From the NCBI GenBank assembly GCA_965242865.1, contig CBDETK010000013.1, positions 2,080,001 to 2,144,000 on the forward strand: DNA of 64,000 nt. The letters run 5' to 3'. The stretch comes from Candidatus Latescibacterota bacterium. Lineage in GTDB: Bacteria > Latescibacterota > UBA2968 > UBA8231. A program made the translations under genes and the position numbers. Positions 5,293-36,281 of the stretch are shown here, one piece after another. The notes under the pieces are model-generated. The model made no database searches. It saw only the letters and a program-made list of their open reading frames with translations, and was not told the origin of the DNA. Each line of letters begins with the position of its first letter. The stretch's first letter is position 1.

Positions 5293-6933
5293 ATGCTGCG
5301 CTGCCTGTGGGTCGCCTGCTTGGGCGCGGCAAGTGGCTGCGGCCTCTTGTCGGAAGCGCCCGTAGCGGAAGTAGGGCCGCACCCAATCACGGCCGCTGCG
5401 CTGAGGAGTTTTGTCGCCGAATGGTCGGGGAGCCGGCCCCCTGCACAGACCGCCGACCAAGCCCGTCGATACTATCTTCAGACCATGATCGACGCCCGTC
5501 TGTTGCTGGTGGAAGCCCGTTCCCGCGGCATCGACACCACGCAGGCCGTGCGAGCAACGGTTCGGGACGCAATCGACGCCCGAGTCCGGGCCCTCTATCG
5601 GGCCCGCGAAATCACGGATGCAATCGCAATTTCCGCAACCGAAATTCGCGCCTATTTCGACGACGAAGGGTATGGGGTAGAGCGCAAAGTCAGCGGCATA
5701 CTGGTAGAAAGCCAGACGGAGGCCGATTCACTGGTGGCCCAGTTGCGTGCGGGACGGCCCTTTGCAGAAGTAGCCGCGGCGCACTCCATAGATGGGCGCT
5801 CGGCCCGCCAAGGCGGGGAGTTGGGGTTCGTCGGGCGCGACATGGTGCCGCGGATTCACATCCCCCCGGAAGTTTTCCGCACGCTCCCCCTCGGCGCGAT
5901 CTCAAAACCTGTGTACACGGGCAAGTACTGGAACATCGTGCGCTTTACCGCAGACCGGCCGGCCGCCTACGACAAGTACCGAGACTCCATCCACCGGCGG
6001 CTCTTTGCGGAGCGGGCGGCCCAAGCCACCGAGGAACACCTCGAGCTGCTGCAAGACGCCTTTGAAGTGCGGCTGCACGAAGAGGCCCTGCAGCCGCTAG
6101 TAACCGCCTACCGCCGACAGAACCTTTCCGCGCTGACCGAGCAATCGCTTCTCCTATATACTTTTGACGAGGGCGCGATCACCGTGGCCGCGGCCGTGAA
6201 GATTTTGCAAGAGCAGCATATCGGCTTTGGCTTCGCCGACCATGTTCAGGCCGCTTCCACGCTCAAGCGCATCGTGCTGAATCCCTTCCTCATCCAAGAG
6301 GCCGCACGGCGGGCGGGCTACTACGAAAAACCCGCGATCCAGCAGCTAAAAAAGGCCAAGGACGAGGAAGCCTTACTCGACGGTCTCAAAGAGGCTGTAA
6401 GCCGAAAACTGGATTTATCCGAGGCGGATGTGCGCCGCTACTACGAAAGCCACCCCGCGGTTTTCAGCCACGAGCCGGCCGTGTGGGTTGAGGAAGTACT
6501 CCTGCCCAGTGCCGACGAGGCGCGAAAAAAGAGAGCGCTGCTAGAACGTGGCACTCCCTTCGCCGAGCTAGCGGGCGCAAGCCTGCGGTCGGACGCTGTT
6601 GAGAAAGCCAATCGATTCCATTTCCATCCGCTAGAGCAGGCTGTCTATCCCAAGCTGATGGCGGCGCTCGAGGACGCATCCGCGGGCGAGCTCGTCGGAC
6701 CAGTGGCTGTCGAAGGCGGCTTTTCCCTCTTTCGCATCCTCGACCACGAGGAGGCCTCCATCGAACCTTATGAACAGGTTCGGAAGCGGGCCGAGGCCCT
6801 GTTGCGCCGCGAGCGGGAACACTGGCACCTGCAAGCCCTGTTGAAGAAATTGCGAGAACAGTACGCCGCCCAGATCGAGATCGACGAAGTGCGCCTGCGC
6901 GAAGCCGTGCCCGACAGTCTCCTGCTCCGCTGA
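5293..6933 (+). CDS. Tandem parvulin-type peptidyl-prolyl isomerase lipoprotein (SurA/PrsA/PpiD-like), module A
   Basis: Lipobox-like signal MLRCLWVACLGAASGC. Rotamase motifs FAEVAAAHSID..SARQGGELG and a second copy FAELA...GELVGPVAVEGGFSLF. SurA-N-like segment LQTMIDARLLLVEARSRGID. Confidence 0.82.
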   Translation: MLRCLWVACLGAASGCGLLSEAPVAEVGPHPITAAALRSFVAEWSGSRPPAQTADQARRYYLQTMIDARLLLVEARSRGIDTTQAVRATVRDAIDARVRALYRAREITDAIAISATEIRAYFDDEGYGVERKVSGILVESQTEADSLVAQLRAGRPFAEVAAAHSIDGRSARQGGELGFVGRDMVPRIHIPPEVFRTLPLGAISKPVYTGKYWNIVRFTADRPAAYDKYRDSIHRRLFAERAAQATEEHLELLQDAFEVRLHEEALQPLVTAYRRQNLSALTEQSLLLYTFDEGAITVAAAVKILQEQHIGFGFADHVQAASTLKRIVLNPFLIQEAARRAGYYEKPAIQQLKKAKDEEALLDGLKEAVSRKLDLSEADVRRYYESHPAVFSHEPAVWVEEVLLPSADEARKKRALLERGTPFAELAGASLRSDAVEKANRFHFHPLEQAVYPKLMAALEDASAGELVGPVAVEGGFSLFRILDHEEASIEPYEQVRKRAEALLRREREHWHLQALLKKLREQYAAQIEIDEVRLREAVPDSLLLR

Positions 6934-7036
6934 GCGGCTCGGCTTTTCAGGGGGCGGATGTATTTACGCAGCCTTGTCAAATTGGTATCCTACACCAAGG
7001 CAAGGCCACCCGGCCCGGCCCAATCAGGAGGTCGCT

Positions 7037-10000
7037 ATGGGACATTCCAGCAAACGGTTCGTCCGGTCGTCGCCGCTGTTTTGCGCCTTGATTTGCCTAG
7101 GCCTGCTCGCCAGTGGGCGCGAGGTGCTCGCTCAGCGCGGCAAAGGACATCGGGTCACCAACAGCCGCATCGTCGTCGAGACCGCCGAACACTGGCGCAA
7201 CTGGCAGTTGCCCGTCCATGCCGTTGACGTGATACCCGAAGGAGGGGTTCGCCCCCACCGCTCGCGCCAGCGCTACAACATCCTCGACGACCAAGCTACC
7301 TTTACCCGCCCGCTGACCGATTTCAGACGCCGGAAAAACCAGCACGCCATCCTCAATATCGATAGCACTGTCACGCGCGACGTGAAGGGCACCGTCATTA
7401 CCGACAGAAAAGACAACCCCCTCTATACCCACTTCGCCCGGCCGGGTATCAGCCGGGTGGGCTCCAATCCGCGAGCAGCAAAAAACATCCTCGATGGCGA
7501 CTCAAGCACCTACTGGGAGCCGGACCGCAACGATCCCCTCAAAGACTGGTGGATCGAAGTGGACTTGGGCCGGGTCGTGGCGGTCGATGAGATTTTGTTG
7601 CACTTCGTCGGCGCCGGGCAGGGCGACCCCTTCCTGCGCTTTAGGGTCCTAACCGCGCCCGACCAAGAAGCCATCCTCGAAGACGCCGACGAAGTGGAAC
7701 TGAGCCGCGTTGGCGGCACGCAGGCACCCAACCGCGACCAGCGCGACTTCAGCTTTGCGCTGGAACAGCCTAAGAGCTCGCCTAGTTGGCGCGGGAGGTT
7801 GGTCCAAACCATTCGCATCGTCGTCACGGATACCCACGCCGGGCGCGGCGCCGAAGTCAGTGAAGAGCAGTGGCTCGCTCTCGACCCGGCAGACCGAGGC
7901 GACATCCTCTATTTTGTCAAGGACCGGCAGGGTTTTGAGGAACGCTTAGATCCGAGCCGCCTCCAAGAGCCGGTGGAGACGTTCTACGACAACCTGCCAT
8001 CCGCCAGGCGAGGAGCAAAGAAATTCTTCATCCGCGAGCGGCCCCGCCTAGCCGATATCGAGGTTTGGGGCTTTGGCGACAACATCAGCCCGGGCATCGT
8101 TGAGGGCGGCGGCAGCCTTTTTCTGTCAGGGGAAAATTTCGCGCCCGGCCCGGGCTTTGACGGCGACTACAATACCAACTTCCTGCACTTGGTCTGGTCG
8201 CCGCTCATCGAGCGCGGCGTCCTGACCGTCGATATGGGCGCATCCTTTTTTCTCGACGCCATAGCGGTTTCGGCTGCTGGGCGGCGGCGCGTCATCGACG
8301 GCTATATCATGCGTGGCTCCGACGGCTCGCGGGATTCCTCCGGCCGCTTGAAGTGGCGGCGCATCAGCCCGCGAGCGCGCGAAGACAACAGCGTTGACCT
8401 GTACGAGCATCTCCTCGATACCTACGACGGAATCGAACTCCGCTTTCTCGAAATGACCATCGTCTCGGTCGATCCGCGCCGCCGTGGCGGCTACAATACG
8501 GGCGCTGATATCGGCGAATACCAGATCTTTTCCCAGGGCTACCCCGCCGAGGTCGTACTGACTTCGGACCTGATTGAATTGCCCGCCGCTCGCAACTTGG
8601 GCCGCATCATCTACGACAGCGAGGTTCCACCCGGCACCAACCTCGAAATTCGCACCCGGTCCGGCGATCTGCTGGGCAAGACCATCCGCTACTTCGACAA
8701 ATCCGGCACCGAACTCACGTTTGATGCCTGGGACAGCTTGCTCCGCAGCTACAAGGGGCCGGTTGATACCTCCTTTGTGCCGGCTAGCGGCTGGAGCCCC
8801 TATAGTCGAGCCTATCAGCAGTCGGGCGATCGCGTCACGTCGCCGGGGCTGCGTAAGTTCTTGCAGATCCAAGTCAAGATGGAGACCACAGACCGCAATA
8901 TCGCCGCGGCGATCCACTCCATAAACATCGAACTCGTCAACCCGGCAGTCTCCAATATCGTGGCCGAACTATGGCCCCCTGAAGTAAAGGTGCCAGGACG
9001 GACCGATACCTTTGAGGTGTTTGTCCAGTCCCAGTTTATTCAGTCGCCCGCCTCGGCGCGCAGCGTCGGCTTTGACGAAATCCTCCTCGTCATGCCCCCC
9101 TCCCAAACGCTGCAACTGCTCGAAGTGGGCATCCAAGACAGCGCCGTTGGCTCGGAGCGGATCTTCTCGCCCGCGGGCGACCCTACCGCTTTTGTCGATG
9201 GGGGCGGCCGCCCACTCGAGCTGCTAAGTCCTAGCGCTGATTCGCTCTGGGTGCGCCTCCCCGAATCCCTCAACGCACTCGCAGACGCCCCCCGCACGTA
9301 CCGCCGCCGCACCGCGGAGGGCGACCAAGTGCCGGTGACCGCAGACGGCTTGCCGCTAACGGACGCTGCGTATGGCCTGCTCGAGGTGGAGGAACAGGGC
9401 GATATCCGCTATTTCCGCCGCACCGAGGGCATCCTGTCCCAAGTCTCCGAAGCCGCCTACCAAGCCTTGGAGCCCGAGCAGCAGGGGCCGATTCGCTACT
9501 TCCGCATCCTGCGCGGCGATGGGGCCCAGTTCCCCTTTGATGCAGCGGGCGACTCGCTCGATGTGACGGCCTACAACCGCCTGCCGACCGCCTCCCGGGG
9601 CACCGTGGTCTCGCCCGGGCCCTTAATGCGGCTGCGCTTTGCCGCTCCCGTCTTTGTCAACGGCACGACCTTGAGCTTGGCCGTGCGCAACACCAGCGGC
9701 GGCGCCAATCTGGCCGCGCCTTGGCAAAGCGTCGAAGCCGGCGACGCGACCGCCCGGATAGGCAGCAATGCCCTCTCGATCAACCTGCCGCTCAACGCCA
9801 AGGCCGTCGATGAATTCCGCATCGCCCCCAATCCGTTTACCCCCAACGGCGATGGCATCAACGACGCGACCGAAATCCACTTCTCCGTCTTCAAACTCAC
9901 CGCTCCCCGCCCGGCTCGGGTGCGGGTGTACACGCTGGCGGGTCGCCCGGTTTGGGAGCATGCCCAGCAATTGCAAAGCGGGCGCTTCAGCACGCGCTGG

Positions 10001-10123
10001 GACGGAACAGACCTGAACGGCCGCAAAGTGCCGCCCGGACTTTACCTTTGCCAAGTGGACCTCGACGTAGATCGGGCAAGCCGCTCGGCGACGCGGACGC
10101 GCCTGCTGTCGATCGCCTATTAG
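7037..10123 (+). CDS. Large secreted protein with discoidin (F5/8-like) domain(s) and a C-terminal FlgD-Ig/CHU_C-like tail, module A
   Basis: AGGAGG at 7026-7031 precedes the ATG. Signal peptide present. Discoidin-like motif ILDGDSSTYW...WWIEVDLGR. Tail PNPFTPNGDGIND...WDGTD.NGRKVPPGLY...SIAY. Confidence 0.8.
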   Translation: MGHSSKRFVRSSPLFCALICLGLLASGREVLAQRGKGHRVTNSRIVVETAEHWRNWQLPVHAVDVIPEGGVRPHRSRQRYNILDDQATFTRPLTDFRRRKNQHAILNIDSTVTRDVKGTVITDRKDNPLYTHFARPGISRVGSNPRAAKNILDGDSSTYWEPDRNDPLKDWWIEVDLGRVVAVDEILLHFVGAGQGDPFLRFRVLTAPDQEAILEDADEVELSRVGGTQAPNRDQRDFSFALEQPKSSPSWRGRLVQTIRIVVTDTHAGRGAEVSEEQWLALDPADRGDILYFVKDRQGFEERLDPSRLQEPVETFYDNLPSARRGAKKFFIRERPRLADIEVWGFGDNISPGIVEGGGSLFLSGENFAPGPGFDGDYNTNFLHLVWSPLIERGVLTVDMGASFFLDAIAVSAAGRRRVIDGYIMRGSDGSRDSSGRLKWRRISPRAREDNSVDLYEHLLDTYDGIELRFLEMTIVSVDPRRRGGYNTGADIGEYQIFSQGYPAEVVLTSDLIELPAARNLGRIIYDSEVPPGTNLEIRTRSGDLLGKTIRYFDKSGTELTFDAWDSLLRSYKGPVDTSFVPASGWSPYSRAYQQSGDRVTSPGLRKFLQIQVKMETTDRNIAAAIHSINIELVNPAVSNIVAELWPPEVKVPGRTDTFEVFVQSQFIQSPASARSVGFDEILLVMPPSQTLQLLEVGIQDSAVGSERIFSPAGDPTAFVDGGGRPLELLSPSADSLWVRLPESLNALADAPRTYRRRTAEGDQVPVTADGLPLTDAAYGLLEVEEQGDIRYFRRTEGILSQVSEAAYQALEPEQQGPIRYFRILRGDGAQFPFDAAGDSLDVTAYNRLPTASRGTVVSPGPLMRLRFAAPVFVNGTTLSLAVRNTSGGANLAAPWQSVEAGDATARIGSNALSINLPLNAKAVDEFRIAPNPFTPNGDGINDATEIHFSVFKLTAPRPARVRVYTLAGRPVWEHAQQLQSGRFSTRWDGTDLNGRKVPPGLYLCQVDLDVDRASRSATRTRLLSIAY

Positions 10124-10224
10124 GACCGTTTCGTTTGACAGACGAGCGGTTTTGCCATACTTAGTTTTGGCCGTGGGGTATTGGTAGTTGCGATTGCGAT
10201 TCCTACTGTTTCGAGGAGGTCGTC

Positions 10225-12900
10225 GTGAAAGGAACGAAAAGCACCCGCTCTTTTGTGCTAACTGTTCTGGTCCCATGTTGTCTCCTGCTGCTCCCCCCGG
10301 TTGGCTCAGCCCAAGAATACGGTGCTCGGCTGGGCACCCTCCAGCCCGGCGGGCACGTTTCCTTTGAGCCTCAAGGGCCTGGGGTTCTCTTCGGGGCCCT
10401 CGATCCGGCCAAGCGCAGGTGGTACGTGCCCCAAGAGCTCTACAACGAGTACCAGTGGCGTCAATGGGAGTATTCCAACTATGCGCGCCAACACTACGAG
10501 CGCTACGTCAGCATCATCAACGAGGGCGACTCGTACTACGACCTCTACGGCAACTTCGTCACCCGAGGTTGGCTCCTTTTTAACAACTCCCAAGCCCAGC
10601 CCCAGCAATTTGGCTCCTCGGTCCTCAAAGGCAGCAATTTCCAAAGTTGGTTCAGTGGGCTGCTGGTCTCGGCCGATGCCAAGGGCCAGCACCACTACTC
10701 AGTGACCATCGGCGATAACATCCGCACCACGCTTACCCCGATGACCTTTTCCAAGCCCCGCTGGGACGGCGTCCAGTTCGACTACGCAGCCGACAAGTAC
10801 CAAGGTACGCTCATCTACTCGCGCCTCAGTCAGCCGGGGGGCAATCCCGACGTAGAAAACCTCGCCACCAACGCCACCTCCCTGATTGGCGGGCGCGGCA
10901 CCCTGCAGGTGGGCGACTTTGCCACCCTAGGCTTGACGGCCGTCAATTCCCACCAGTCCAACACCCTCATCAGCGGCTTTAGGGGCAACCCGGTCACCGG
11001 CAAACTCACGATCGACCAAAACCAGACGATCTCCTTCATCGAGATCGTGCTGCGCGACGACTCGCCCGAAGACCAAACCGGCGGCGCGGCTTTCTTCCCC
11101 ACGGGCTCTGACATCATCATCACCTACGACGACGGCACGGTGGACCGGGGCAAGGACATTCGCTTTGAGCCGATCATCGAAGGCGGCTTTATCCGCCAAG
11201 GCTTTCTCTCGGCCGATGGCACCGAGGAAATTCGCCTGCGCTACGATTTCGACAGCCCGGCGTTTGTCAATCGTTCATCCGGGGCTAAGGAGGCCATCAA
11301 AAAGGTCGAGTTCCGCCTAGTGCTGGGCAATGACTACCAAATCTGGATCTCTTCAAACAACCAACTCAACATCTCGGATGTATCGGTGCTCTTGCTGGTC
11401 GCCCAAGCCGAGGGCAATGTCCAAGACAACACCAACTTGCAGGTCGTCAGCTTTGAGTACGGCTTGCCCACGGCGACTCAAATCTGGGGCGCCACGCTCG
11501 AACTAGCCGAGGTTTTTGGCTTCAACTTCTACGGCGAATACGACTTGAGCTACTCTTATACCCAGTATCCCAACGTGTTGCGCAAAAGCCACTCGACCTC
11601 CGCGGGCCTCCGCGGCGATCGGGCGGCCCCGGCTTGGATGGTCAACCTCTCGCGCAACACGTATCCTTGGTTCGCCTTTGGCGAGGCCTACAGCATGGAC
11701 CCGCGTTACAACACGCGGACCTTCACCACGCTGAGTTCTGGCTTCATCGACTACGAGGACGAACGCGTCCACGTAGTGGAGTTGGTTGAAGACAACGACG
11801 ACCAAGACCGCTATCCCGACACCGTGCGCAAGGATTGGCGGGCCGGCGACCAAGAAGTCTATCCCGGCTGGGACGAGAACAACGACTTCATCTCCGACTT
11901 CAACCAGAACGACAATCGCTTCCTCTCCAACTCCGTTCCCGACTACGAAGAGCCTTTCCTGCGCCACAACGTCGATCATCCCGAGTTCCTCTTTGGCATC
12001 GACCTCAACAACAACGTTTGGATCGACCGCTTTGAAAACGACGAGGCTCCCGACTACCCCTACAAGAAGGACCATCGGGGGTTCAACGTATATGGCGGTA
12101 TGCACCTGACGCCAGCGGTCCGGCTGATGGCCGGGGTCCTGCGCGAGGACCTCATCACCTCGAACCAAGCAAACCGCGTCAACTACGTGCTGTTCACCAT
12201 CGACACGTCCACGCCTAATTGGGGCCGCTTTCGCCTCTTTGAGATGATCAAGTCCGTTGCGGACGACATTCCCGACGACCTGCAACAGTGGTTGCCCAAC
12301 GCCAATATCCGCACTGGCGAATCGACCAAAATCGAGGACCCCCTCATCGCGCGCGACACTTACGTCAACGCCCTGTGGCTGGGCCACGACTACCAGCACG
12401 GCGGCTTCGTCGCCAAGAACTTTCTCAAGTACGACCTGTACTATCAGCGCCTCGACGCGGACCAACGCGCCCCCTTGGGCCTGCGCCAGCGCGACTTTTT
12501 CTTTGGCTTCGTCAACAAAGTGAGCTACCGCATCAACCTAGGCCGCCTCTGGATTGAGCCGCGCTGGAAGAGCCAGTACCGCCAACAGACCATCGACCTG
12601 CTTTCGCAGGAAAAACGCACCGAACTGGCCGAAATCGGCGGTTTCCTGCTGGGTTTTCCCATGCTCCAGCACACGACCCTGCGGTTCGGCTTGGAGTTGA
12701 CCTTTGTCAACGATTTCGAGCGCGACCTCAACGACTTTAACAGCATCGTCGGTGCCGCCCAGTTCACGAATGTATCCGACTATCTGGGCTATAAGCTCAC
12801 CACGCAGATGGGCATGCGGATAGATCGCCGCAACCCCAAGGGCGACGAATCGGAAACCATCACCGAAAGTTTCATCGCCGTGTACGCCGGCCTGCAATAG
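10225..12900 (+). CDS. ~890-aa exported Asp/Asn-rich protein, putative outer-membrane beta-barrel, module A
   Basis: GAGGAGG SD and GTG start. Signal peptide present. DxNDD/DENND calcium-binding-like loops. The C-terminal third shows alternating hydrophobic beta-strand patterns. Closely paralogous to 26245-28914. Confidence 0.6.
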   Translation: MKGTKSTRSFVLTVLVPCCLLLLPPVGSAQEYGARLGTLQPGGHVSFEPQGPGVLFGALDPAKRRWYVPQELYNEYQWRQWEYSNYARQHYERYVSIINEGDSYYDLYGNFVTRGWLLFNNSQAQPQQFGSSVLKGSNFQSWFSGLLVSADAKGQHHYSVTIGDNIRTTLTPMTFSKPRWDGVQFDYAADKYQGTLIYSRLSQPGGNPDVENLATNATSLIGGRGTLQVGDFATLGLTAVNSHQSNTLISGFRGNPVTGKLTIDQNQTISFIEIVLRDDSPEDQTGGAAFFPTGSDIIITYDDGTVDRGKDIRFEPIIEGGFIRQGFLSADGTEEIRLRYDFDSPAFVNRSSGAKEAIKKVEFRLVLGNDYQIWISSNNQLNISDVSVLLLVAQAEGNVQDNTNLQVVSFEYGLPTATQIWGATLELAEVFGFNFYGEYDLSYSYTQYPNVLRKSHSTSAGLRGDRAAPAWMVNLSRNTYPWFAFGEAYSMDPRYNTRTFTTLSSGFIDYEDERVHVVELVEDNDDQDRYPDTVRKDWRAGDQEVYPGWDENNDFISDFNQNDNRFLSNSVPDYEEPFLRHNVDHPEFLFGIDLNNNVWIDRFENDEAPDYPYKKDHRGFNVYGGMHLTPAVRLMAGVLREDLITSNQANRVNYVLFTIDTSTPNWGRFRLFEMIKSVADDIPDDLQQWLPNANIRTGESTKIEDPLIARDTYVNALWLGHDYQHGGFVAKNFLKYDLYYQRLDADQRAPLGLRQRDFFFGFVNKVSYRINLGRLWIEPRWKSQYRQQTIDLLSQEKRTELAEIGGFLLGFPMLQHTTLRFGLELTFVNDFERDLNDFNSIVGAAQFTNVSDYLGYKLTTQMGMRIDRRNPKGDESETITESFIAVYAGLQ

Positions 12901-12910
12901 CTTCGGCCTT

Positions 12911-15181: not shown

Positions 15182-15190
15182 CAGCCGCGT

Positions 15191-17308: not shown

Positions 17309-17447
17309 TGAAGCACTCCAATAAACCGAGACCGCGGCACCTGTTGGCCGCCAGTGCTTGTGAAATGACTTTTGGCAACGAGTCGATATGGCTTTATTTT
17401 GCCTTTAGATATGAGAATCTCGTCCCCCAGTCAAGGAAGGATGAGCC

Positions 17448-19571: not shown

Positions 19572-19591
19572 GTTCTGGACGCGCGATTTGT

Positions 19592-19620
19592 TTGACATTT
19601 TTTTGCGATTGTCGTAGGGT
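19592..19620 (+). promoter_or_regulatory. Sigma70-like promoter for the 19742 gene
   Basis: TTGACA (19592-19597), a 17-bp spacer, then TAGGGT (19615-19620, TAnnnT), in an AT-rich intergenic stretch. Confidence 0.6.
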
Positions 19621-19741
19621 ATAGCCCAATGCTGGCACGAAGCCAAATTTTCCAGAGCCGGTCGTCGAAAGGAGGTTTTTTCGGCAGGCGATTCCTTCGC
19701 AACGCATCCCCTACTCAACTATTCTGAGGAGGTTTCTCGAC

Positions 19742-20629
19742 ATGCAAAAAATCGCAAAAGGACTGATGGTCCTGCTCGTATCGGCTGGGCTCGCTAACGC
19801 CCACAACCCGCCGGGTGAGTTCTTCTTTCTCTTTCAGTTTCCCGATAACGCTGTGCCAACTATAGACGGCGACCTTTCGGACTGGAGTATCGTCCCGGAC
19901 AAGCCTTACGTGATTCGCAGCGACAAGCTCTACGACCCCGCTCAGTTCCACGAAGCGGGTCGCGGCGAGCTCGATCTCAGCGACTTCAACCCGCTGCACA
20001 TCCTCGGTTGGAACGAAAATCTCAACAAGCTCTATTTCGCCAACCAAGTCTTTGACAACATCCACAATACCGACCGCGAAGACCCGGCCCGCCATTGGGA
20101 CGACGACAACTGGGAGGTTGAAGTCAACCCGACCCACCTAGCGGCCGACGAGCAGAACCTCGCGGACGAGCCCGTCAACCGGATCGCCTATAAATGGGTC
20201 GTGCCGCCACTCGAGGGCGTCTATCAGTCGCTCGAGCCCATCGGCAACCTAGCTTGGCTTTCGGACGGCGGCGACTTTACTTCGTTTGGCTGGTCCTTCG
20301 ACGGCGACATGTTCGGCGAAAGTACCTATTACTACGAGCTGGGTATTACGCCGATTGCCTTGATCCCCCGGGAGAATGCCACGCCCGACAACATCGAGAT
20401 TTACGACCTCGAAGAGGACGATATCATCCATATCTCGATCAACAACGGCGATATTGACGCGCCCCAGTCCGACCACGCCTATCAGGGCTTTTGGGGCACC
20501 ACCCCAGAGAGCAGCAATATCGCGCTCAACGACTTTGTCCTCGCGCCGCTCGAAGAGGGGATTGACTTTTCGGAGACGAGCGTCGAAGCAACCAGTTGGG
20601 GCCAGCTCAAGAGCAGCTTGGGTCGATAA
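19742..20629 (+). CDS. Small acidic secreted protein (CBM9/DOMON-like N-terminal motif) with a C-terminal SVEATSWGQLK motif, module A
   Basis: GAGGAGG SD. Signal peptide ending ANA-H. FQFPD..VPTIDGDLSDW motif. Paralogous to 29054-29929. Confidence 0.65.
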   Translation: MQKIAKGLMVLLVSAGLANAHNPPGEFFFLFQFPDNAVPTIDGDLSDWSIVPDKPYVIRSDKLYDPAQFHEAGRGELDLSDFNPLHILGWNENLNKLYFANQVFDNIHNTDREDPARHWDDDNWEVEVNPTHLAADEQNLADEPVNRIAYKWVVPPLEGVYQSLEPIGNLAWLSDGGDFTSFGWSFDGDMFGESTYYYELGITPIALIPRENATPDNIEIYDLEEDDIIHISINNGDIDAPQSDHAYQGFWGTTPESSNIALNDFVLAPLEEGIDFSETSVEATSWGQLKSSLGR

Positions 20630-28914: not shown

Positions 28915-29053
28915 TGGGTTTGATCTGAGCAAAGGCGACCTGTTAGTAGCTGAAAGGAGGAGAAAGGAACAGGCGTCGTTTTACCCCCGATTGGGGTGGC
29001 AAAAGACACAATGACTCACTCCCGTACTCACTCACTGAAGGAGAGGTGTTGCA

Positions 29054-29929
29054 ATGAAGAGAATCAACGAAGCATCCATTGCGTTACTGGTCTCGATCCT
29101 CATGGTCGGCTCGGCTTTTAGCCACCAAGGGGAGATGAAGTTCATGTTCCAGTTCCCGGATCACCTGACGCCGGTGCTGGACGGCGATATGTCGGACTGG
29201 GACATCGTAAGCGATGTGTACAAGATCAAAGCCGAAACCATGTTCAACCAGTTCGGTGCGCCCATGGATTTGAGCGATTTCAACGCTTGGCTCGTCTGGG
29301 GCTACAACATCAACGACGGCAAGGCCTATTTTGCAGCTTGGGTTGCCGACGACTTCATCAACGACACCGAGAAGTGGTCGACGACTACAGATTGGGACCA
29401 CTCCGGTGGCATCTTTCGCGGCTTTGACCAAGGGGACGATTTTGAGACCCGCTGGGCCAGTGCCCAAGCCCAACGCTACGATCTGGCCGGCCCCATTTTC
29501 AGCTCTTCCGGTTATTATACCCGGATTATCGACGGCTCCAAAGCGTGGGCGGGCCAGTCCCCTTACGTGGAATGGGCCGGCAAGTTTCTCCGCGGCGACG
29601 TCAATACACAGGAGCCAGCAGAAATGTTTGGCGAATACTCCATTGTGCCCTTTGACGACATCCATCCCGACGGTGCCGACCAGAGTGTCAGGCACAATTG
29701 GGTGGAAGGCACCGTTGTCGGCATAGAGGTCAACTGGGGCGACAAGGATGCCGATCCCGGCTCCTACGACGATGCCTATTGGTCCGGTTTCGGCGGCATA
29801 GGTGCTTCTCGGGACGCCGACCAGTTCGGCGACTATTTGTTGGCGCCGATTGAAGAGGGGTTGCCCGAGGCTCGAGCTACCTCAGTCGAGGCCAACACTT
29901 GGGGCCAGATCAAGTCCACCTTCAAGTAA
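29054..29929 (+). CDS. Small acidic secreted protein with a C-terminal SVEANTWGQIK motif, module B
   Basis: AAGGAGAGG SD. Signal peptide ending AFS-H. FQFPD..PVLDGDMSDW motif. Tail LAPIEEG...TSVEANTWGQIKS. Confidence 0.65.
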   Translation: MKRINEASIALLVSILMVGSAFSHQGEMKFMFQFPDHLTPVLDGDMSDWDIVSDVYKIKAETMFNQFGAPMDLSDFNAWLVWGYNINDGKAYFAAWVADDFINDTEKWSTTTDWDHSGGIFRGFDQGDDFETRWASAQAQRYDLAGPIFSSSGYYTRIIDGSKAWAGQSPYVEWAGKFLRGDVNTQEPAEMFGEYSIVPFDDIHPDGADQSVRHNWVEGTVVGIEVNWGDKDADPGSYDDAYWSGFGGIGASRDADQFGDYLLAPIEEGLPEARATSVEANTWGQIKSTFK

Positions 29930-29956
29930 AGTCGAAGAGGTTGTAGGATGGTTTCA

Positions 29957-29996
29957 GGCGGGATTTACGGGCGACTGTAAATCCCGCCGTTCTCTT
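29957..29996 (+). terminator. Intrinsic terminator / 3' stabilising hairpin after the 29054 gene
   Basis: Perfect 12-bp stem GGCGGGATTTAC / GTAAATCCCGCC with an 8-nt loop, followed by GTTCTCTT. Confidence 0.7.
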
Positions 29997-29998
29997 GC

Positions 29999-31861
29999 GT
30001 GGCGACCATGCAAAGGAGGCACTGGGTGAGACGGGTACTGATGCTAGTCCTGACCGCGCTGGGAATGGCCGAGGCGCGCCAATTTTACCAGCTGGGGGGC
30101 CATGGTGGAAACCCTTGGAGCGAAAGCGGCACCCTGAGTTCTATCGATGTGGCAAAGGTGCCGGGTGCCATCCGCCCGTTCAGTACCGAAAGCGGCGAGA
30201 ACCTAATTGCCTCGATGGGCGAGCGGCAGGGCGACATCACCAGCTTGGTGAGCATTTACACCCTGCCGGCCAATTGGCTGGACGACCGCGTGCGGATCGT
30301 AGATGGCGATTCAACTACGGCTTTTGTGCATCCGCCGCGCATCAATTTTTTTCGCGGCCCTGGGTTCTTCTATACCACGCCGATGTTCTTCGATTTGGGG
30401 GCACCATTCCCCATTGAAGGGATTCGCTTTGCAACCCGCGCCGATCATCCGGGGCACAAGATCCGCCAGTTTAGGCTTTCCATCAACGACGGCAGGGAGG
30501 AGAGCAAAGACGAAAAAGGGAATCTCGTCTGGACCTTGCTTCACGACGAGAAAGACAATTTGAGCCCGGTCGTCGAACTGGCTATCGAACCCCAGATAGC
30601 GCGCCACGTCTATCTCCACCCCTTGGAAGTGGGCGAGACTTGGGAAGTGGCCGAGTTTGAGGTGTACGGTCAGGGGTTCGTTCCCCAAGCCTCATTTCGG
30701 TCCGACCCGATTGATCTGGGCCGAGCATCGAGTTTGGGGCGCATTTGGTGGAACGGTCAACTCGATCCAGAAGCGAAAATAGTCATCCAGAGCCGCAGCG
30801 GCCGCGATGACCAGCCCGAGATTTACTGGCGCAAGACCGGGGTGGGCGGAGAGGAAGTGCCATTCGGAGCCAATGGCCGCCCCATGAGCCGCCAATCCTA
30901 TGAAGCCATGCCCCAGAACGTGCAGGGGCGCATTACCCAGGATCTGGAAAACTGGAGCGTATGGCACACCTATGAATATGCGGACGGCCTCGCCGGCAAC
31001 CGCATGCTCTCGCCCAGCCCCCGGCAGTACGTGCAGCTACACATCGCTTTTTTTTCGGCCCGATTAGAGGGGGGACAGATCGACTCCCTGTTTTTTGAAT
31101 TTTCCCAACCCCCGGTCGTCTCCGCGGCGATTGGCGAGATTTACCCTCCCTTTGTCGAGTCGGCCGACCCGGTTCGGTTCACCTATGCGGTGCGGACGCG
31201 ACTGGAGGCAGAGCAATCGGGTTTTAATGTGCTCGAGGTGCGGACTCCCGCTCGTCTAGAGGCCATCCACGAAGTGCGGATCGACCGCGAAGTGGTCCAT
31301 TTTACCCCGAGTTTCGATCCGGCGGCTCCCCACCAGTTCGCAGTCCAATTTGATCGCATTGACCAAGATCAGACGCTGCTAGAAGTCGATTTCGACGCCC
31401 GCGTCTTAAACTATGGAACGACTTTCAGCGGCGCCGTGTCGGATGCAGACCGCGATGAAGTCCCCCAGAGCGTGATTCCCGGAGATGCGATGAGTGAGTT
31501 GTTGAGCGATGCTTTGGACGTCCGCACACCGCTCAAGGGCCGCCTGCTCAGCGCCGTGCAGGTGGTTCCCAACCCGTTTTCACCCAATGGAGACGGCGTC
31601 AACGACCAAGTGCAGTTCTCCTATACCTTACTCCGTCTGACCGATGGCGTACCTCTTGAGACGGAAATCTACACGCTGGCGGGAAACCGAGTGCGCCTCT
31701 TGGACGCCGGGGAGAGGGGGAGCGCGCTTTATCAAGTTACTTGGGACGGTCGGGATGACCGAGGCGAATTGGTGGCCCCAGGGCTATACATCTACCGCGT
31801 GGTGGTAGAAGCGGGCAGGGGTTGGGAGGAGCGACTGGGGCCGGTCGCTCTGGCGTACTGA
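29999..31861 (+). CDS. Secreted FlgD-Ig/CHU_C-tailed protein, module B
   Basis: Signal peptide. Motifs EFEVYGQGF, IQSRSG, SPSPRQYVQ, GEIYP. Tail PNPFSPNGDGVND...WDGRDDRGELVAPGLY...VALAY. Confidence 0.8.
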   Translation: MATMQRRHWVRRVLMLVLTALGMAEARQFYQLGGHGGNPWSESGTLSSIDVAKVPGAIRPFSTESGENLIASMGERQGDITSLVSIYTLPANWLDDRVRIVDGDSTTAFVHPPRINFFRGPGFFYTTPMFFDLGAPFPIEGIRFATRADHPGHKIRQFRLSINDGREESKDEKGNLVWTLLHDEKDNLSPVVELAIEPQIARHVYLHPLEVGETWEVAEFEVYGQGFVPQASFRSDPIDLGRASSLGRIWWNGQLDPEAKIVIQSRSGRDDQPEIYWRKTGVGGEEVPFGANGRPMSRQSYEAMPQNVQGRITQDLENWSVWHTYEYADGLAGNRMLSPSPRQYVQLHIAFFSARLEGGQIDSLFFEFSQPPVVSAAIGEIYPPFVESADPVRFTYAVRTRLEAEQSGFNVLEVRTPARLEAIHEVRIDREVVHFTPSFDPAAPHQFAVQFDRIDQDQTLLEVDFDARVLNYGTTFSGAVSDADRDEVPQSVIPGDAMSELLSDALDVRTPLKGRLLSAVQVVPNPFSPNGDGVNDQVQFSYTLLRLTDGVPLETEIYTLAGNRVRLLDAGERGSALYQVTWDGRDDRGELVAPGLYIYRVVVEAGRGWEERLGPVALAY

Positions 31862-31868
31862 TAAAAAC

Positions 31869-33605
31869 ATGCGACCCAGAAAACCATGGACTCGGCGAGG
31901 ATGCGAGCTAGCCCTCTTATGGAGTCTCGCGGCGTGTTCGCCGGGTGTGGAGGTCGTCCTCGAACCCGGTGTGGTGGCGCGCATTGATTCCACTTCCATC
32001 TCGGCCGCCGAGCTGCGCGATTTCGTCGTCCAGATGCCCCGGTCCTTGCGCCTCCAAGGACCGGGCGACCCCGCGCGACAGCACTACCTGCGCAGCATGC
32101 TGGCCAAATACTTGCTCGTGCTGGAGGCCAAAGAGCGAGGATTGGATACCGCTCAGGTGGTACAGACGAAGGTGATGCACCACTGGCGTCAGCACTTGGT
32201 CGCCACCTATCGCCAGCTCGCACTGGCACCCAAGGTGCAGGTTTCCGCGGAGGAGATCCGCGCCTATTTCGCCCACAGCGGCCTAGACCGCAAGCGCCAG
32301 ATGGCGGGCATTCTGGTGGAAAAGGATAGCACCGCACAGCAAATACATGAGGAGCTCGAAGCGGGTGGGGATTTTGCCCAACTGGCCGCCGAATACACCA
32401 TTGACGAACGGTCGGCGGCCCAAGGGGGGGTGCTGGGATTTATCGATCTGAAGCAGGCCCGCAGGTTGCAGATTCCAGACGAGGTGTTTCGCAGTCTGCC
32501 GAGTGGACAGCCATCCCCGGTCCTGCCCATGGGCACGCGCTACCAAATCGTGCGCTTCCTCCAAGACCAGCCCGTTCCGCTAGCGGAAAAACGACCGCAG
32601 ATTCGCGAGATACTCTACGAACGCAAGCGACTAGAGCAGGAGAACGCGGAGATCGCGACCCTCGTCCGCAAGCTAGATGTGCAGCTAGTGCCAGAGGGAT
32701 TAGAGCTTCTACTGCATAAAGCGGCCCTCCACACCCGGGTGCGCCTCGCCCATCTGGCCGCCGAGGAGGTGGGCCAGCCCCTCTTTACCTATAAGGGGGG
32801 GCAAATCTCGCTGGGCGATTACCTCAATGCCCTGTGGAAGGATCTGCGGGCCTTGTCCGGCTGGGGGGTACGGGACAGTGCCGAGGTGGTTGACACAGCG
32901 AGGGAGCTAATTTTGATACCGGCTTTGTTGGCAGAGGCGGCGCAGCGGGCCGGGTTCGCGGAGATGGTAGATGGACGACAGCGCTTGCAGGAAATACGCA
33001 CGGAATTTCTGATTAAACAGTTGCGCGAGGAAGCGGTCATCGACCAATCCGAGGCGAGCCAAGAGGAAGCGAGGGATTTTTACGATAACAATGAAGAATT
33101 GTTCCGGGAACCGGCCCAATACATCGTCGTTGAAGTGCTGGTCGAGACCGAGGCGGAAGCCGCCGGTTTGCTGCGGGCCATAGAACGAGGGGCATCCTTG
33201 GGAACGCTTGCCCAAAAGCACACCATCCGCTCAGGTATGGAGCAAGAAGAGGGCTTGCTGCATCTAGGCGAGTACGAGCGTTTGACCCTGCCGCGGCTCT
33301 TCAAAGCAGTAAAGGCGGCCGAGCTCGGCAAAATCACCGGGCCAGAGCCTGTTGAAGGCGGGTACAGCATTTTCAGCGTTCTCAACCGCCAAGGGGGAGA
33401 AGTAGCCCCCTTTTTTCAAGTCGAGAACAAGGCGCGGGCTTTGGTGCGCGGACAGAAGCGAGAACAATTGTTTGAAGAACTGATAGACGACCTGCTAGAC
33501 AAGTACAAAGACCGGATCGCGGTGTCTGACAGCGCGTTGGCCGCGGCTCTACCCGATTCGTTCCTACAGCACCACGCAGGGGAAGCCCCAACCAAAGGCG
33601 AATAG
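31869..33605 (+). CDS. Tandem parvulin-type PPIase lipoprotein, module B
   Basis: Lipobox LAAC. FAQLAAEYTIDERSAAQGGVLG and a second rotamase-like unit GKITGPEPVEGGYSIF. Paralogous to 5293-6933. Confidence 0.82.
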   Translation: MRPRKPWTRRGCELALLWSLAACSPGVEVVLEPGVVARIDSTSISAAELRDFVVQMPRSLRLQGPGDPARQHYLRSMLAKYLLVLEAKERGLDTAQVVQTKVMHHWRQHLVATYRQLALAPKVQVSAEEIRAYFAHSGLDRKRQMAGILVEKDSTAQQIHEELEAGGDFAQLAAEYTIDERSAAQGGVLGFIDLKQARRLQIPDEVFRSLPSGQPSPVLPMGTRYQIVRFLQDQPVPLAEKRPQIREILYERKRLEQENAEIATLVRKLDVQLVPEGLELLLHKAALHTRVRLAHLAAEEVGQPLFTYKGGQISLGDYLNALWKDLRALSGWGVRDSAEVVDTARELILIPALLAEAAQRAGFAEMVDGRQRLQEIRTEFLIKQLREEAVIDQSEASQEEARDFYDNNEELFREPAQYIVVEVLVETEAEAAGLLRAIERGASLGTLAQKHTIRSGMEQEEGLLHLGEYERLTLPRLFKAVKAAELGKITGPEPVEGGYSIFSVLNRQGGEVAPFFQVENKARALVRGQKREQLFEELIDDLLDKYKDRIAVSDSALAAALPDSFLQHHAGEAPTKGE

Positions 33606-33608
33606 GGT

Positions 33609-36281
33609 ATGAAACACCGCTTACCTGTGCAGCACTCGACAGACGCGAGGCGATCGGCGTTTTGTCTCCTCGCCCTTCTTCTCTTTACGGCTCTAAACGG
33701 GGTATCGGCCCAGTCAAGGGGGTACAGTGTGGGCGCGGATCGGGTCGAGGTGCGGACTCAGGCGCACTGGCAGGCTTGGGATTTTCCGGCAGATATGGTG
33801 ACCATAACGCCGTCTGGCTCGGTGCAGTCCAGATTCGTACAAGTGCCGCACAACGCCATATTAAATGCGGCCGACTTTAGCTATCCCATTGATGGCAGCC
33901 TGCGAGATCAGTACGCCAATTCGTTTCAAGACGAAAACAATACTCTGCTGGCCCGCGGCGGCATCAAAAGGGCGGGTTCAAATCCGCAGTTAGCGGAGCG
34001 GGTCCTTGACGCGGATCCAACGACCGCTTGGGAGCCGGACCCGGCCGATCCCCTGCGGGACTGGGTACTGGAGATCGACCTGGGCCGTCTGGTGTCGGCC
34101 ACCAAGGTCGTCGTGCGCTTTGCCGAAGCAGGGGATCCGTTCCTGCAATTCAGGGTGCATTCGGCCGGCGGGCAAAACCCCTTTGGCACGGCGGACCGCA
34201 GTGGCGCCCTGGACTACACCTTGGTCGGCAGCACCACTCAGCCCAATCGCGACCAGCGGGTCTTTGAGTTTGACCTCGCGCCCCTGGGCACCCATACAGA
34301 AGAGTGGAGCGGCCGCATTATGCAGTATCTGCGCATCGCGGTCACAGCCACCAATGGCGAGCGGGCCCAACAGCTCTCGGCCGAGGAGTATCAAGCGCTG
34401 GCCGCAGAGAACCAAGGCGCGGTGGAATACGTCTGGAAAATCGCCGGCGAAGAGCGGCTAGTACCGGCCGAGCGCTACGACCAGTTGTCAGTTGAGCAGC
34501 AGGGTGGGGTGCGCTATTATCGCCGCGAACGGCCGCAACTCGCCGAGGTGGAGGTCTGGACTGTGGGTGAGAACATTGCCTTGGGGATCATAGAGCGCGG
34601 CGGTAGCTTACACGATGTCAATCCCAATTCTTCGCCCGAACTTGCCGTCGATGGCAACGTGCGCACTGAGTGGCAGGGCATGGTCTATTTTCCCACCGGG
34701 GAGACCGCCGAGTGGGGGTTGTTGAACGTGGATCTGGGCTCCCACTTCTTAGTCCATGCGGTGCGCATCATTACCCGCGTTGGCGGCAGAAACCTGATTG
34801 GTTATCTATTGCGCGGTTCGGACGGTTTGCTGGCCCCCGATGGCAGTTTGATCTGGGAGGAATTGAGTGGTGAGACTCGGCAGTTAAACCAGAACACGCG
34901 GCTATTCGAGGATCACTTCGCACCGCGCCCGATGCGCTTTTTAGAATTCCGCAACCTAGATATTGCCCGCCGCACGAGGGCCCATGAAGGGCACCGGATC
35001 CTGAGCACAGTGACCGAAATCCAAGTCTTCGCCCATGGGCACTTGCCCATACTAAAGATGACTTCCGATCTCATCGATCTAGGGAGTTCCAAGACGCTAA
35101 CGACCATCGACTGGGAAGCGGACACTCCTCCGGGCACGGCCGTAGAAATCCGCACTCGCACGGGCAATGATCTGCGCGAAGTAAACCGCTATTTCAAAAA
35201 AGACGGTACGGAAGTAGCCAACAAAGAAGAATACGAGGAGCAGCCGTCTTTCTACCGGGGGGAGATCCTCACCGAGTTCCTGCCGGGACCGGGCTGGAGC
35301 AACTGGAGTCAAGTGTACGTCAAACCGGGCGAAGTCGTAAGTTCCCCCAATCCCCGGCGCTATCTGATGCTCCAGACGAGACTGCTCAGTGAAGACGCGG
35401 CGGTCGCCGCCAGCCTAGAGTCGATCCAGCTCCATTTCACAGCACCGCTGGTAGAGCACCTCGCTGGAGAAATAGAGCCCAAGCGGAATGTCCCCAGCGG
35501 CGAACTCACCGATTTCAACCTCTTCATCCGCCCCTCCTTTGCTGCTCAGAACCCAGGATTCGACCTCATTCGGTTCATCGCGCCTTCGCGGGCGAATATC
35601 GAACTGCGCCACGTGAGTTTGGGAGCCGAAAGCGAGTTTGCCGCCGGCGACGAGAAAATATTCGCCGAAGTGGCAAAGGGCCGTTTTGAGAATGGGGCCG
35701 GGGAGGAACTGGCGTTGACTAAGGTGGCAATTGACACGCTGCAACTGGGCCTGCCCAGGATACTGAGACGAGGCCGTGCGGATATTGTGCGGCTCTCTTT
35801 TTCGTCGCGTGTCTTCCTGAGCGGTGCCACTTTTGCCGCCGAAGTTGGGCTCTCGACGCAAGCGGACAACTGGCAGCGGGTGGATCCAGCGGATCCGGTA
35901 GGCGATGAATGGGCCGTTGGTGAGGGGTTGACAGTATTGACGACCGAGCACCCCGATCAGATTGGGATGATCGAGGTAAATCCTGCCACGTTTACCCCAA
36001 ATGGCGATGGCATTAACGACGCGGCGGTCTTTTCATTTGTCGTGCTCAAGGTCAATGTAGCCCGGCGAGTCGTGGTGTATTTATACGACTTGGCGGGCAG
36101 GGAAGTACGGCGTCTTTCTGAGAGGCGCGATATGGCGAATGGGCTGTATCGCGTTGTCTGGGACGGACGGGACGGACGGGAAAATTTAGTACCTCCGGGC
36201 CTGTACCTCGCCCGTATCGAGGTAGATGACGACGCGAGGGATGACAACTCGGCTGCCCGCCTAGTTGGGGTGGCGTATTGA
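33609..36281 (+). CDS. Large secreted discoidin-like, FlgD/CHU_C-tailed protein, module B
   Basis: Paralogous to 7037-10123 (GSNP, WEPD..DPL.DW..E.DLGR, GDPFL.FRV, PNRDQR.F, EIRTR.G). Tail FTPNGDGIND...VGVAY. Confidence 0.8.
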   Translation: MKHRLPVQHSTDARRSAFCLLALLLFTALNGVSAQSRGYSVGADRVEVRTQAHWQAWDFPADMVTITPSGSVQSRFVQVPHNAILNAADFSYPIDGSLRDQYANSFQDENNTLLARGGIKRAGSNPQLAERVLDADPTTAWEPDPADPLRDWVLEIDLGRLVSATKVVVRFAEAGDPFLQFRVHSAGGQNPFGTADRSGALDYTLVGSTTQPNRDQRVFEFDLAPLGTHTEEWSGRIMQYLRIAVTATNGERAQQLSAEEYQALAAENQGAVEYVWKIAGEERLVPAERYDQLSVEQQGGVRYYRRERPQLAEVEVWTVGENIALGIIERGGSLHDVNPNSSPELAVDGNVRTEWQGMVYFPTGETAEWGLLNVDLGSHFLVHAVRIITRVGGRNLIGYLLRGSDGLLAPDGSLIWEELSGETRQLNQNTRLFEDHFAPRPMRFLEFRNLDIARRTRAHEGHRILSTVTEIQVFAHGHLPILKMTSDLIDLGSSKTLTTIDWEADTPPGTAVEIRTRTGNDLREVNRYFKKDGTEVANKEEYEEQPSFYRGEILTEFLPGPGWSNWSQVYVKPGEVVSSPNPRRYLMLQTRLLSEDAAVAASLESIQLHFTAPLVEHLAGEIEPKRNVPSGELTDFNLFIRPSFAAQNPGFDLIRFIAPSRANIELRHVSLGAESEFAAGDEKIFAEVAKGRFENGAGEELALTKVAIDTLQLGLPRILRRGRADIVRLSFSSRVFLSGATFAAEVGLSTQADNWQRVDPADPVGDEWAVGEGLTVLTTEHPDQIGMIEVNPATFTPNGDGINDAAVFSFVVLKVNVARRVVVYLYDLAGREVRRLSERRDMANGLYRVVWDGRDGRENLVPPGLYLARIEVDDDARDDNSAARLVGVAY

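Follow-up and report, generated by a model that had tools for sequence, protein, structure and literature searches.

The window analysed here is a stretch of 64,000 nucleotides (nt) from contig CBDETK010000013.1 of a Candidatus Latescibacterota bacterium, whose genome assembly comprises 6.0 Mb in 13 contigs and is 93.6% complete and 6.8% contaminated. Between window positions 5293 and 36281 lie two gene sets, modules A and B, which an earlier sequence-only reading had described as two six-gene copies of one exported machine, and which centre on a family of ~890-amino-acid (aa) outer-membrane proteins termed OM890. All twelve open reading frames (ORFs) of that description were found in place, two of its starts, 5293 and 7037, being internal ATGs within the longer ORFs 5164-6933 and 6974-10123. 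A hydrophobic N-terminal signal segment or a lipobox-like Cys motif, likewise claimed for all twelve, was seen by eye in 12 of the 12 translations.

Module A, encoded on the plus strand except where stated, opens with a double-parvulin (SurA/PrsA-like) peptidyl-prolyl isomerase (PPIase; 5293..6933), which has Rotamase matches and is read as a lipoprotein from its lipobox-like Cys N-terminus. It is followed by a large discoidin protein (7037..10123) resembling carbohydrate-binding module family 32 (CBM32), with F5_F8_type_C and CHU_C matches and the motif FTPNGDGIND in a C-terminal domain like that of type-B cargo of a type IX secretion system (T9SS). Next comes the OM890 gene (10225..12900), whose product is read as a beta-barrel from an AlphaFold2 model and fold matches, and 10 nt past its stop starts the gene of a GT-C (PMT_2) membrane glycosyltransferase with C-terminal TPR repeats (12911..15181; PMT_2 39.3 bits against a cut-off of 26.1, many TPR families). 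Two mid-size CBM32/immunoglobulin (Ig) proteins with T9SS-like tails follow, one on the minus strand (15191..17308; FTPNGDRVND, CHU_C and FlgD_ig below cut-off) and one on the plus strand that was also modelled (17448..19571; CHU_C, FlgD_ig). The module ends with a CBM9-like protein of ~295 aa (19742..20629), assigned from family matches to CBM9_1 and termed WGQ, with a conserved C-terminal TSVE..SWGQLK tail, beyond which an FG-GAP/UnbV_ASPIC protein with TPR repeats, a lipoprotein by eye, is encoded on the minus strand (20650..23613; FG-GAP_3 135.5 bits, UnbV_ASPIC 68.8 bits, many TPR families).

Module B lies wholly on the plus strand and begins with a mid-size CBM32/Ig protein with T9SS-like tail (24204..26219; CHU_C, FlgD_ig, FTPNGDGAND), directly 5' of its OM890 barrel gene (26245..28914). 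Then follow the WGQ protein (29054..29929), CBM9-like and ending in the tail TSVEANTWGQIK, another mid-size CBM32/Ig protein with T9SS-like tail (29999..31861; FlgD_ig, FSPNGDGVND), a double-parvulin PPIase read as a lipoprotein (31869..33605; Rotamase_2, Rotamase, an LAAC lipobox by eye) and a large discoidin protein with T9SS-like tail (33609..36281; FTPNGDGIND, Pfam matches just under cut-off). The six-component inventory is thus present in full, although it had left out the PMT_2/TPR gene at 12911-15181 and the ASPIC/TPR gene at 20650-23613, both of which recur with the cassette.

Pairwise blastp proved the two sets paralogous family by family. Identity reaches 33% over 569 aa between the PPIases (E 1e-78), 34% over 729 aa between the large discoidin proteins (E 2e-119), 49% over 901 aa between the ~890-aa proteins (E 0) and 31% over 311 aa between the WGQ proteins (E 2e-29). 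The four mid-size tailed proteins share 27-33% mutual identity (E 1e-50 to 4e-87), that at 15191-17308 being 31-33% identical to the others, and together with the large ones they form a single superfamily (26-30% identity, E 2e-31 to 2e-44), hereafter DISC, for the discoidin-tail genes. Modules A and B are old paralogous copies of one cassette, at 31-49% identity. A look-up of sequencing data for positions 10700-20629 yielded four datasets of DNA or unspecified type, from two studies, and none of RNA.

The OM890 proteins of the window (889-891 aa) have no Pfam or NCBIfam match. The AlphaFold2 model of the module A protein, with a predicted local distance difference test score (pLDDT) of 77.4 and a predicted template modelling score (pTM) of 0.76, consists almost entirely of long beta hairpins, and by this model and its fold matches OM890 is a large outer-membrane beta-barrel of an undescribed family, in line with the barrel already suspected from the letters of the DNA. 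About 24 transmembrane strands can be read from its secondary-structure string, with tight turns alternating with longer loops, and two big inserts appear to lie on the loop side, which would face outward. The first is a modelled beta-sandwich of ~160 aa (residues ~247-405), and the second an acidic region of ~125 aa (residues 492-616) that is the best-conserved part of the protein, with 49 of 125 columns at least 90% conserved and 36% D, E or N. It contains two EF-hand-like loops of 12 residues each, beginning at residues 550 and 593, which, judged from their sequence, probably bind calcium. The N-terminal segment that precedes the barrel (residues 30-100) is conserved (18 of 71 columns) and aromatic-rich, and was modelled with low confidence. 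A dockerin identity for the acidic loop stays speculation; no Dockerin Pfam match was obtained.

Searches with the barrel model led to a broad class of folds. Foldseek ranked MtrB first (6r2q_B, E 3.3e-10), placed Deinococcus SlpA at ranks 2-4 (8ae1, 7zgx; E 1.1e-7) and gave FimD and LptD at about 1e-6, while VIA-align returned generic barrels only, up to Z 14.1. Apart from a few mitochondrial proteins (VDAC, Tom40), all matches in both searches were outer-membrane barrels, porins included, and since only generic barrels were returned, no specific family was assigned to OM890. MtrB (of MtrCAB), SlpA, LptD and FimD are barrels of at least 24 strands that hold or pass a partner protein; they are the best fold matches of OM890, but template modelling scores (TM-scores) amount to just 0.17-0.33, there is no sequence relation, and the cassette has no cytochromes, SLH domains, LptE or pilins. 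A sequence profile of OM890 run against solved structures gave a single chance match (E 1.3), and in the ESM Atlas only unnamed clusters were matched, the nearest named one, DUF6029 at 0.88, being a lead only.

The FxPNGDGxND motif marks type B of the T9SS. A motif of this type stands at the start of the last ~100 residues in all six tailed proteins of the window, one of them reading NGDR and another having NE for ND. CHU_C (PF13585, cut-off 27) scored 34.9, 49.1 and 37.8 bits in the proteins starting at 7037, 17448 and 24204, and remained under the cut-off in those at 15191 (23.1), 29999 (24.5) and 33609 (25.5 bits). FlgD_ig scored 47 (17448), 35.6 (24204) and 30.5 bits (29999), and fell under its cut-off at 15191 (18.9) and 33609 (25.2 bits), so that one or both families match the C-terminus of every tailed protein, above cut-off in four of the six. 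Five of the six matched TIGR04131 at 17.9-27.4 bits and none reached its cut-off of 35, and the type A model TIGR04183 scored at most 17.7 bits against 23. F5_F8_type_C (cut-off 28.2) was found at 32.9 bits in the large module A protein and, below cut-off, at 23.4 bits in its module B counterpart.

The model of the mid-size protein 17448-19571 (pLDDT 84.1) is all beta. Its residues ~90-305 match CBM32 with Z 14.3 (root-mean-square deviation, rmsd, 2.0 over 122 aa, 21% identity), next to a further CBM32 match at Z 13.3 and many at Z 10-12.8, and residues 601-707 match the C-terminal domain of PorU (Z 13.2, rmsd 2.2 over 98 aa, 26% identity) and that of PorZ (Z 11.1), with Ig-like domains in between. 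No enzyme fold was returned by the fold searches of this model. The T9SS-type C-terminal domain proposed earlier for the tailed subunits is borne out by the CHU_C and FlgD_ig matches and by the PorU and PorZ folds, and with CBM32, Ig-like and T9SS C-terminal domains in the model the DISC proteins are probably sugar-binding lectins.

Both parvulins match Rotamase families clearly: that of module A has Rotamase_2 at 71.3 bits (cut-off 27), Rotamase at 47.2 (cut-off 21.7) and Rotamase_3, together with SurA_N_3 at 23.5 bits, below cut-off, and that of module B has Rotamase_2 at 61.7 and Rotamase at 50.2 bits. The NCBIfam equivalogs (SurA, PrsA, PpiD-like) score far below their cut-offs for both, and the cassette parvulin therefore falls outside the named orthologue groups.

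For the WGQ proteins of the window themselves, neither a Pfam match at E <= 0.01 nor an NCBIfam match was obtained. CBM9_1 (PF06452) appears in 14 of 35 aligned family members (best E 1.1e-6), is precomputed in 9 of 102 homologues and occurs in 13%, 37% and 94% of the members of the nearest Atlas clusters; by these profile matches the WGQ protein appears CBM9-like. The last ~15 residues, TSVE..SWGxIK, are among its most conserved, V281, E282, W286 and K290 being nearly invariant. In a metagenome protein of 1104 aa, P0374, a WGQ-like module (39% identity over 281 aa) forms the N-terminus, and where WGQ proteins have their short tail the chain continues with PA14, cohesin in two stretches and a T9SS tail; this fusion suggests that the CBM9-like module works outside the cell. 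As a side remark, the cohesin of P0374 and the EF-hand-like loops of OM890 raise the idea of a cohesin-dockerin-like contact, which is speculation from a single case.

The tail reaches beyond the family. In the proteome of this genome, 59 of 74 occurrences of WG-x-[ILVM]-K fall among the final 25 residues of their protein, where 6.5% would be expected, and 40 of these 59 are in proteins outside the WGQ family. Many bearers are proteins of 190-360 aa that have no Pfam matches and are encoded beside giant FN3-rich proteins of 1081-2206 aa, as at G000:C13:694205-739668 (L112-L114) and 2422010-2452113 (L115-L116); in the window the tails lie at 20590-20629 and 29890-29929. NCBIfam gave no model for the tail in the two window proteins. 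From its distribution, the motif, usually in the form TSVE..SWGxIK, behaves like a proteome-wide C-terminal signal.

The window is one locus among many. Mapping by tblastn of the window proteins and a crude longest-ORF caller, with counts that may be off by a few, gave 36 OM890, 95 DISC, 25 parvulin and 22 WGQ genes in the genome, in addition to 35 ASPIC/TPR and 11 PMT/TPR genes and 61 further proteins that share only the tail. OM890 and DISC combine at ~25 loci, the window's locus being counted once, where the sequence-only reading had seen two modules. Within 15 kb of an OM890 gene lie 74 of the 95 DISC, 21 of the 25 parvulin, 17 of the 22 WGQ, 10 of the 11 PMT and 19 of the 35 ASPIC genes. 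This zone covers 15.8% of the contig and contains just 6 of the 61 other tail-bearing genes, so the linkage is specific to the cassette families and does not extend to secreted proteins generally.

The components have also diversified together. The similarity matrix of OM890 correlates in Mantel tests with those of the nearest parvulin (r 0.45, reached in 3 of 2000 permutations), the nearest WGQ protein (r 0.57, 0 of 2000) and the nearest large DISC protein (r 0.37, 1 of 2000). Cassettes were therefore duplicated and diverged as units, a pattern that does not demonstrate binding. Of 37 barrel genes in this genome, 26 have a DISC gene and 6 another OM890 gene as their upstream neighbour on the same strand. 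Foreign-looking genes were noted within some sister cassettes, in the form of a DNA methylase that has a zinc ribbon of IS1595 type, of a restriction enzyme (TdeIII) accompanied by its methylase, and of Schlafen/HATPase_c_4 genes (L004:10180-11472, L017:12472-14060, L019:7969-9350).

The cassette recurs in other genomes. A scan of one genome per species yielded at least 516 OM890-encoding stretches, from which 80 loci were kept with flanks of up to 10 kb on each side. DISC genes are present in 80 of these 80 loci, parvulin and WGQ genes in 62 each, PMT genes in 34 and ASPIC genes in 24. Together with the 15-kb linkage, this shows that the families co-localise far beyond chance, and the scattered occurrence that would have spoken against a joint system was not found. 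Upstream of the external barrel genes on the same strand stands a DISC gene in 78 of 110 cases and another OM890 gene in 20 of 110, and 29 of the 110 have a PMT gene as same-strand downstream neighbour.

The composition and order of the cassette are looser in one respect and firmer in another than the two window copies had suggested. A fixed 1:1:1:2:1 composition did not hold, as loci have 1-2 barrels and 1-4 tailed proteins each, and a parvulin gene and a WGQ gene are each found in 62 of 80 loci. The gene order, described as reshuffled, does differ between the modules, but each order is conserved in orthologous loci: that of module A (PPIase, large DISC, OM890, PMT) is complete in 16 of the 80 external loci and that of module B in 4. 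Whole orders are matched gene by gene at 39-95% identity (for example 39-70% in locus L035 and 50-76% in L056), with barrel and WGQ proteins reaching 90-95% between orthologous cassettes of different genomes, and the two orders therefore represent two stable lineages and not free shuffling. The placement of the PPIase gene directly upstream of the large discoidin gene, seen in both modules, is frequent (26 of 62 PPIase genes in external loci, 6 of 24 in this genome) but no rule.

The family is large and taxonomically concentrated. Among 7999 scored candidates, 887 OM890 relatives were found at E <= 1e-5; the best 120 of them have no Pfam domain and are named just 'hypothetical protein', and wherever a taxon is given for these 120 it is Latescibacteria or Latescibacterota, while some records of OM890 loci carry the submitter labels Gemmatimonadetes or Handelsmanbacteria. 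A profile of 64 sequences matched 1089 cluster representatives in 1.84 billion proteins. In a comparison of 151 genomes of the phylum, which are related and not independent samples, OM890 was found in 94: in 63 of 63 genomes of the own family (f1), in 0 of 30 and 0 of 19 genomes of the sister families f2 and f3, and in most genomes of the remaining families. CHU_C-tailed genes follow a similar course, with 63/63 genomes against 63/63 for OM890 in f1, 5/30 against 0/30 in f2, 0/19 against 0/19 in f3, 6/6 against 5/6 in a further family and 13/13 against 12/13 in f10. The cassette can be regarded as a hallmark of the phylum. For the barrel and the cassette, neither a Pfam or NCBIfam model nor a name or paper was found, and the composition can still be called undescribed; a literature search on T9SS, outer membrane and polysaccharide utilisation in Latescibacterota, in which subscription journals lay outside the search, found no paper on it, and the passages seen of a Latescibacteria genomics paper (PMC4454575) do not mention it.

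The genome encodes core components of the T9SS. SprA is encoded in a single frame of 2150 aa (481.9 + 114.2 bits, above cut-off), PorU scores 624.3 bits against a cut-off of 420, and PorV, adjoining PorU, 65.2 bits, above cut-off. GldK reaches 68.8 bits, on its FGE-sulfatase-like part, against a cut-off of 350, three control genomes also being below that cut-off and none above. GldL scored 17.9 bits and GldM and GldN gave no match in this genome, with no control genome responding to these models either. The sequence-only reading had asked for such a core, of which SprA, PorU and PorV were recovered; with controls of this kind, the Gld result does not amount to absence. Either this phylum has a strongly diverged T9SS motor or its system works in another way. 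Also noted were two dense arrays of ORFs of ~290-950 aa (most ~720-950) that end in a PorU-like/T9SS C-terminal domain, at G000:C13:3157996-3203553 and 367171-406357, away from OM890 genes; they score 31-37 bits on positions ~1000-1088 of NF033707 and form another expanded cargo family.

The closest known parallel is found in Bacteroidota, where PorP/SprF-like barrels in the gene neighbourhood bind type-B cargo and are required by it, as in SprB-SprF of Flavobacterium johnsoniae and PG1035-PorP-PorE of Porphyromonas gingivalis (PMC9143113, PMC12618676). The cassettes resemble these systems in that their cargo ends in an Ig-like domain of ~100 aa with the FxPNGDGxND motif and CHU_C matches, in that the barrel gene has a cargo gene immediately upstream on the same strand (in the 78 of 110 external and 26 of 37 own cases given above), and in that many cargo/barrel pairs occur in a genome with SprA, PorU and PorV. 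They differ in the barrel, which at ~890 aa, with ~24 strands and two large inserts, is unlike the ~300-aa PorP/SprF and shows no match to PF11751. Several cargo proteins go with each OM890 barrel, the set is enlarged by a dedicated parvulin, by a CBM9-like protein that has a C-terminal tail of its own and, often, by a GT-C/TPR glycosyltransferase, and the host is a member of Latescibacterota in which GldL, GldM and GldN were not detected. The scale differs as well, at ~25 cassette loci per genome as opposed to the 12 type-B substrates reported for F. johnsoniae (PMC12618676).

Because type-B-like tails, the cargo-then-barrel order and co-diversified components parallel the PorP/SprF arrangement, the cassettes are read as T9SS cargo-plus-anchor sets that build a lectin-decorated outer-membrane platform and not as a secretion system, a reading that is given an even chance of being right. 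The claim that they form a secretion machine of their own was abandoned, as they read best as cargo and cognate barrel served by the single T9SS of the genome. All cassette products would leave the cytoplasm via Sec, and in the periplasm the large barrel, the cargo proteins or both would have the parvulin as their chaperone. The DISC proteins would then cross the outer membrane through the T9SS and be retained at the surface, where their uncleaved C-terminal domain would dock on the OM890 barrel of their own cassette. Once outside, the CBM9-like WGQ protein would join the surface assembly, one of the cassette components may be glycosylated by the GT-C enzyme, and many diverged cassettes would provide many ligand specificities for the capture of glycans or particles.

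Several points weigh against this platform. We infer the contact between cargo and barrel by analogy, and the client of the chaperone and the ligands of the cassettes are likewise inferred. OM890 has no sequence relation to PorP/SprF, the window barrels giving no match to PF11751 at E <= 0.01, and is about three times as long as that model (273 positions). Away from any barrel gene lie 21 of the 95 DISC and 55 of the 61 other tail-bearing genes, and such cargo therefore does not always need a barrel gene as its neighbour. Assignment of the tails to type B is borderline, with the CHU_C cut-off passed in three of six proteins and TIGR04131 below cut-off in each of its five matches. T9SS function outside Bacteroidota is assumed, given a GldK and a GldL below threshold and no match for GldM and GldN in searches that had no positive control. 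The inside or outside position of the barrel inserts was read from the secondary-structure string and not from coordinates. The distribution of PorP_SprF (PF11751) lends little help: it was found neither in this genome nor in the own family (0/63), and its matches elsewhere in the phylum are marginal (19.7-28.1 bits), among them those in 25 of 30 genomes of the sister family f2, which has no OM890; of two such matches inspected, neither has tail-bearing cargo next to it and one is matched by PorV as well, so that the complementary pattern of OM890 and PorP across families is weak as support.

The cassettes might instead be loci for glycan capture and import, in which the barrel is a substrate channel fed by the CBM32 and CBM9-like proteins and gated by its N-terminal segment or loops. 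Sus-like polysaccharide utilisation loci (PULs) of Bacteroidota combine the SusC barrel, SusD and surface glycan-binding proteins, and the cassettes share with them the many paralogous loci that each encode an outer-membrane barrel and surface carbohydrate-binding proteins. Every full cassette has carbohydrate-binding modules of two kinds, the diverged paralogous loci, of which a genome has dozens, are reminiscent of PUL expansions, a barrel of ~24 strands is wide enough for oligomers, and TonB-dependent transporters, among them the SusC-like BT1762-63, are found among the weaker fold matches (Z 8.4-10.1). These transporter matches, however, are no better than those to other barrels, and the window barrels gave no Pfam or NCBIfam match to plug or TonB_dep_Rec domains. 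There is no SusD, and the binding proteins of the cassette are T9SS cargo and not lipoproteins. Among the 33 other ORFs in 20 loci of this genome, none is a glycoside hydrolase, a lyase or a sugar-specific regulator, and with no carbohydrate-active enzyme among them a classical PUL was rejected; one ABC-2 permease and one binding-protein-dependent permease were noted at the edges of two loci. Import is accordingly considered rather unlikely, though with some chance of being right.

A further proposal, regarded as distinctly unlikely as a whole, would see in the cassette a new class of modular outer-membrane organelle, restricted to Latescibacterota and close kin, in which a giant, calcium-loaded barrel anchors T9SS-delivered lectins and a CBM9-like cap and also conducts the glycans they capture inward, the short TSVE..SWGxIK tail being a C-terminal targeting signal, not recognised so far, that directs small proteins to such surface assemblies. 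Such an organelle would be a T9SS-built, TonB-independent counterpart of Sus that evolved separately.

It is quite improbable, if conceivable, that the cassettes build a structural coat, that is, an S-layer-like or envelope-tethering lattice of the kind formed by SlpA in Deinococcus, made of the barrels and the Ig-rich proteins, with the paralogues providing variation against phages or grazers in place of ligand specificity. Besides the ranks of SlpA and its S-layer complex in the barrel search, 7 of 22 distant OM890 relatives show SlpA_C (PF21620) at 19.7-30.2 bits in one short stretch, below the cut-off of 35, Foldseek ranks an S-layer protein from an archaeon first for the cargo model (E 1.9e-8), and some cassettes have insertions of restriction-modification and Schlafen-like genes. 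The window barrels themselves, however, match neither SlpA_C nor SLH, and the barrel profile finds no solved structure by sequence. The cargo match covers a generic string of Ig domains at TM 0.12, and orthologous cassettes are well conserved, at the 90-95% already given for barrel and WGQ protein, unlike a fast-varying surface.

Self-contained export, with the barrel as an usher-like translocon for its Ig-fold neighbours and the parvulin as chaperone, independently of the T9SS, is very unlikely: our own reading of the model does give ~24 strands and an inserted beta-sandwich as in chaperone-usher pores, FimD and PapC are among the Foldseek matches (E ~1e-6), most cassettes have a dedicated periplasmic chaperone gene and GldL, GldM and GldN were not detected, but no usher family is matched in Pfam by the window barrels, their neighbours are CBM32/Ig cargo and a parvulin instead of pilins and PapD, usher folds (TM ~0.2) fit no better than LptD, MtrB or porins, the sandwich is placed by the same reading on the outer and not the periplasmic face, and the cargo tail is structurally a T9SS C-terminal domain in a genome with SprA, PorU and PorV.

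Other genes of the window were noted on either side of the two modules. The region directly upstream of module A (1790-5225) encodes a corrinoid activator of RACo type (Fer2 + Raco_middle + RACo_C_ter) and, beside it, a methylenetetrahydrofolate reductase with a DUF5981 C-terminus, and these genes seem unrelated to the cassette. Downstream of module B, the minus strand at 36643-43469 encodes a UvrD helicase of AddA-like type (1198 aa) that includes a PD-(D/E)XK nuclease domain, followed by a second PD-(D/E)XK protein of 1077 aa, a pair that looks like AddAB type. A defence-gene island then extends over 46717-63318, with ResIII/RE_endonuc, Schlafen AlbA_2 + HATPase_c_4, a SIR2_2 protein of 1263 aa, an AAA_15 ATPase, ORC-CDC6-like + HD-CE genes and a C-5 cytosine methylase, and G+C drops to 42-50% at 58-64 kb.

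About 5% of the genome, estimated from ~25 loci of ~13 kb, is devoted to a single kind of cassette, built around a protein of an undescribed family, and the same investment is made across an uncultured phylum common in sediments, soils and sponges. Recombinant protein would allow direct tests of the conserved EF-hand-like loops of the barrel, of the lectin domains and of the short tail at the C-terminus. Should type-B-like cargo be anchored by the barrel, the principle of T9SS cargo and cognate barrel would extend beyond Bacteroidota to an unrelated and larger barrel, and a second, independent anchor family would become available for comparison in T9SS research. If the cassettes bind glycans, it is likely through them that Latescibacterota attach to polysaccharide detritus and harvest it, and the diversity of cassettes in each genome would be a readable record of its substrate range.

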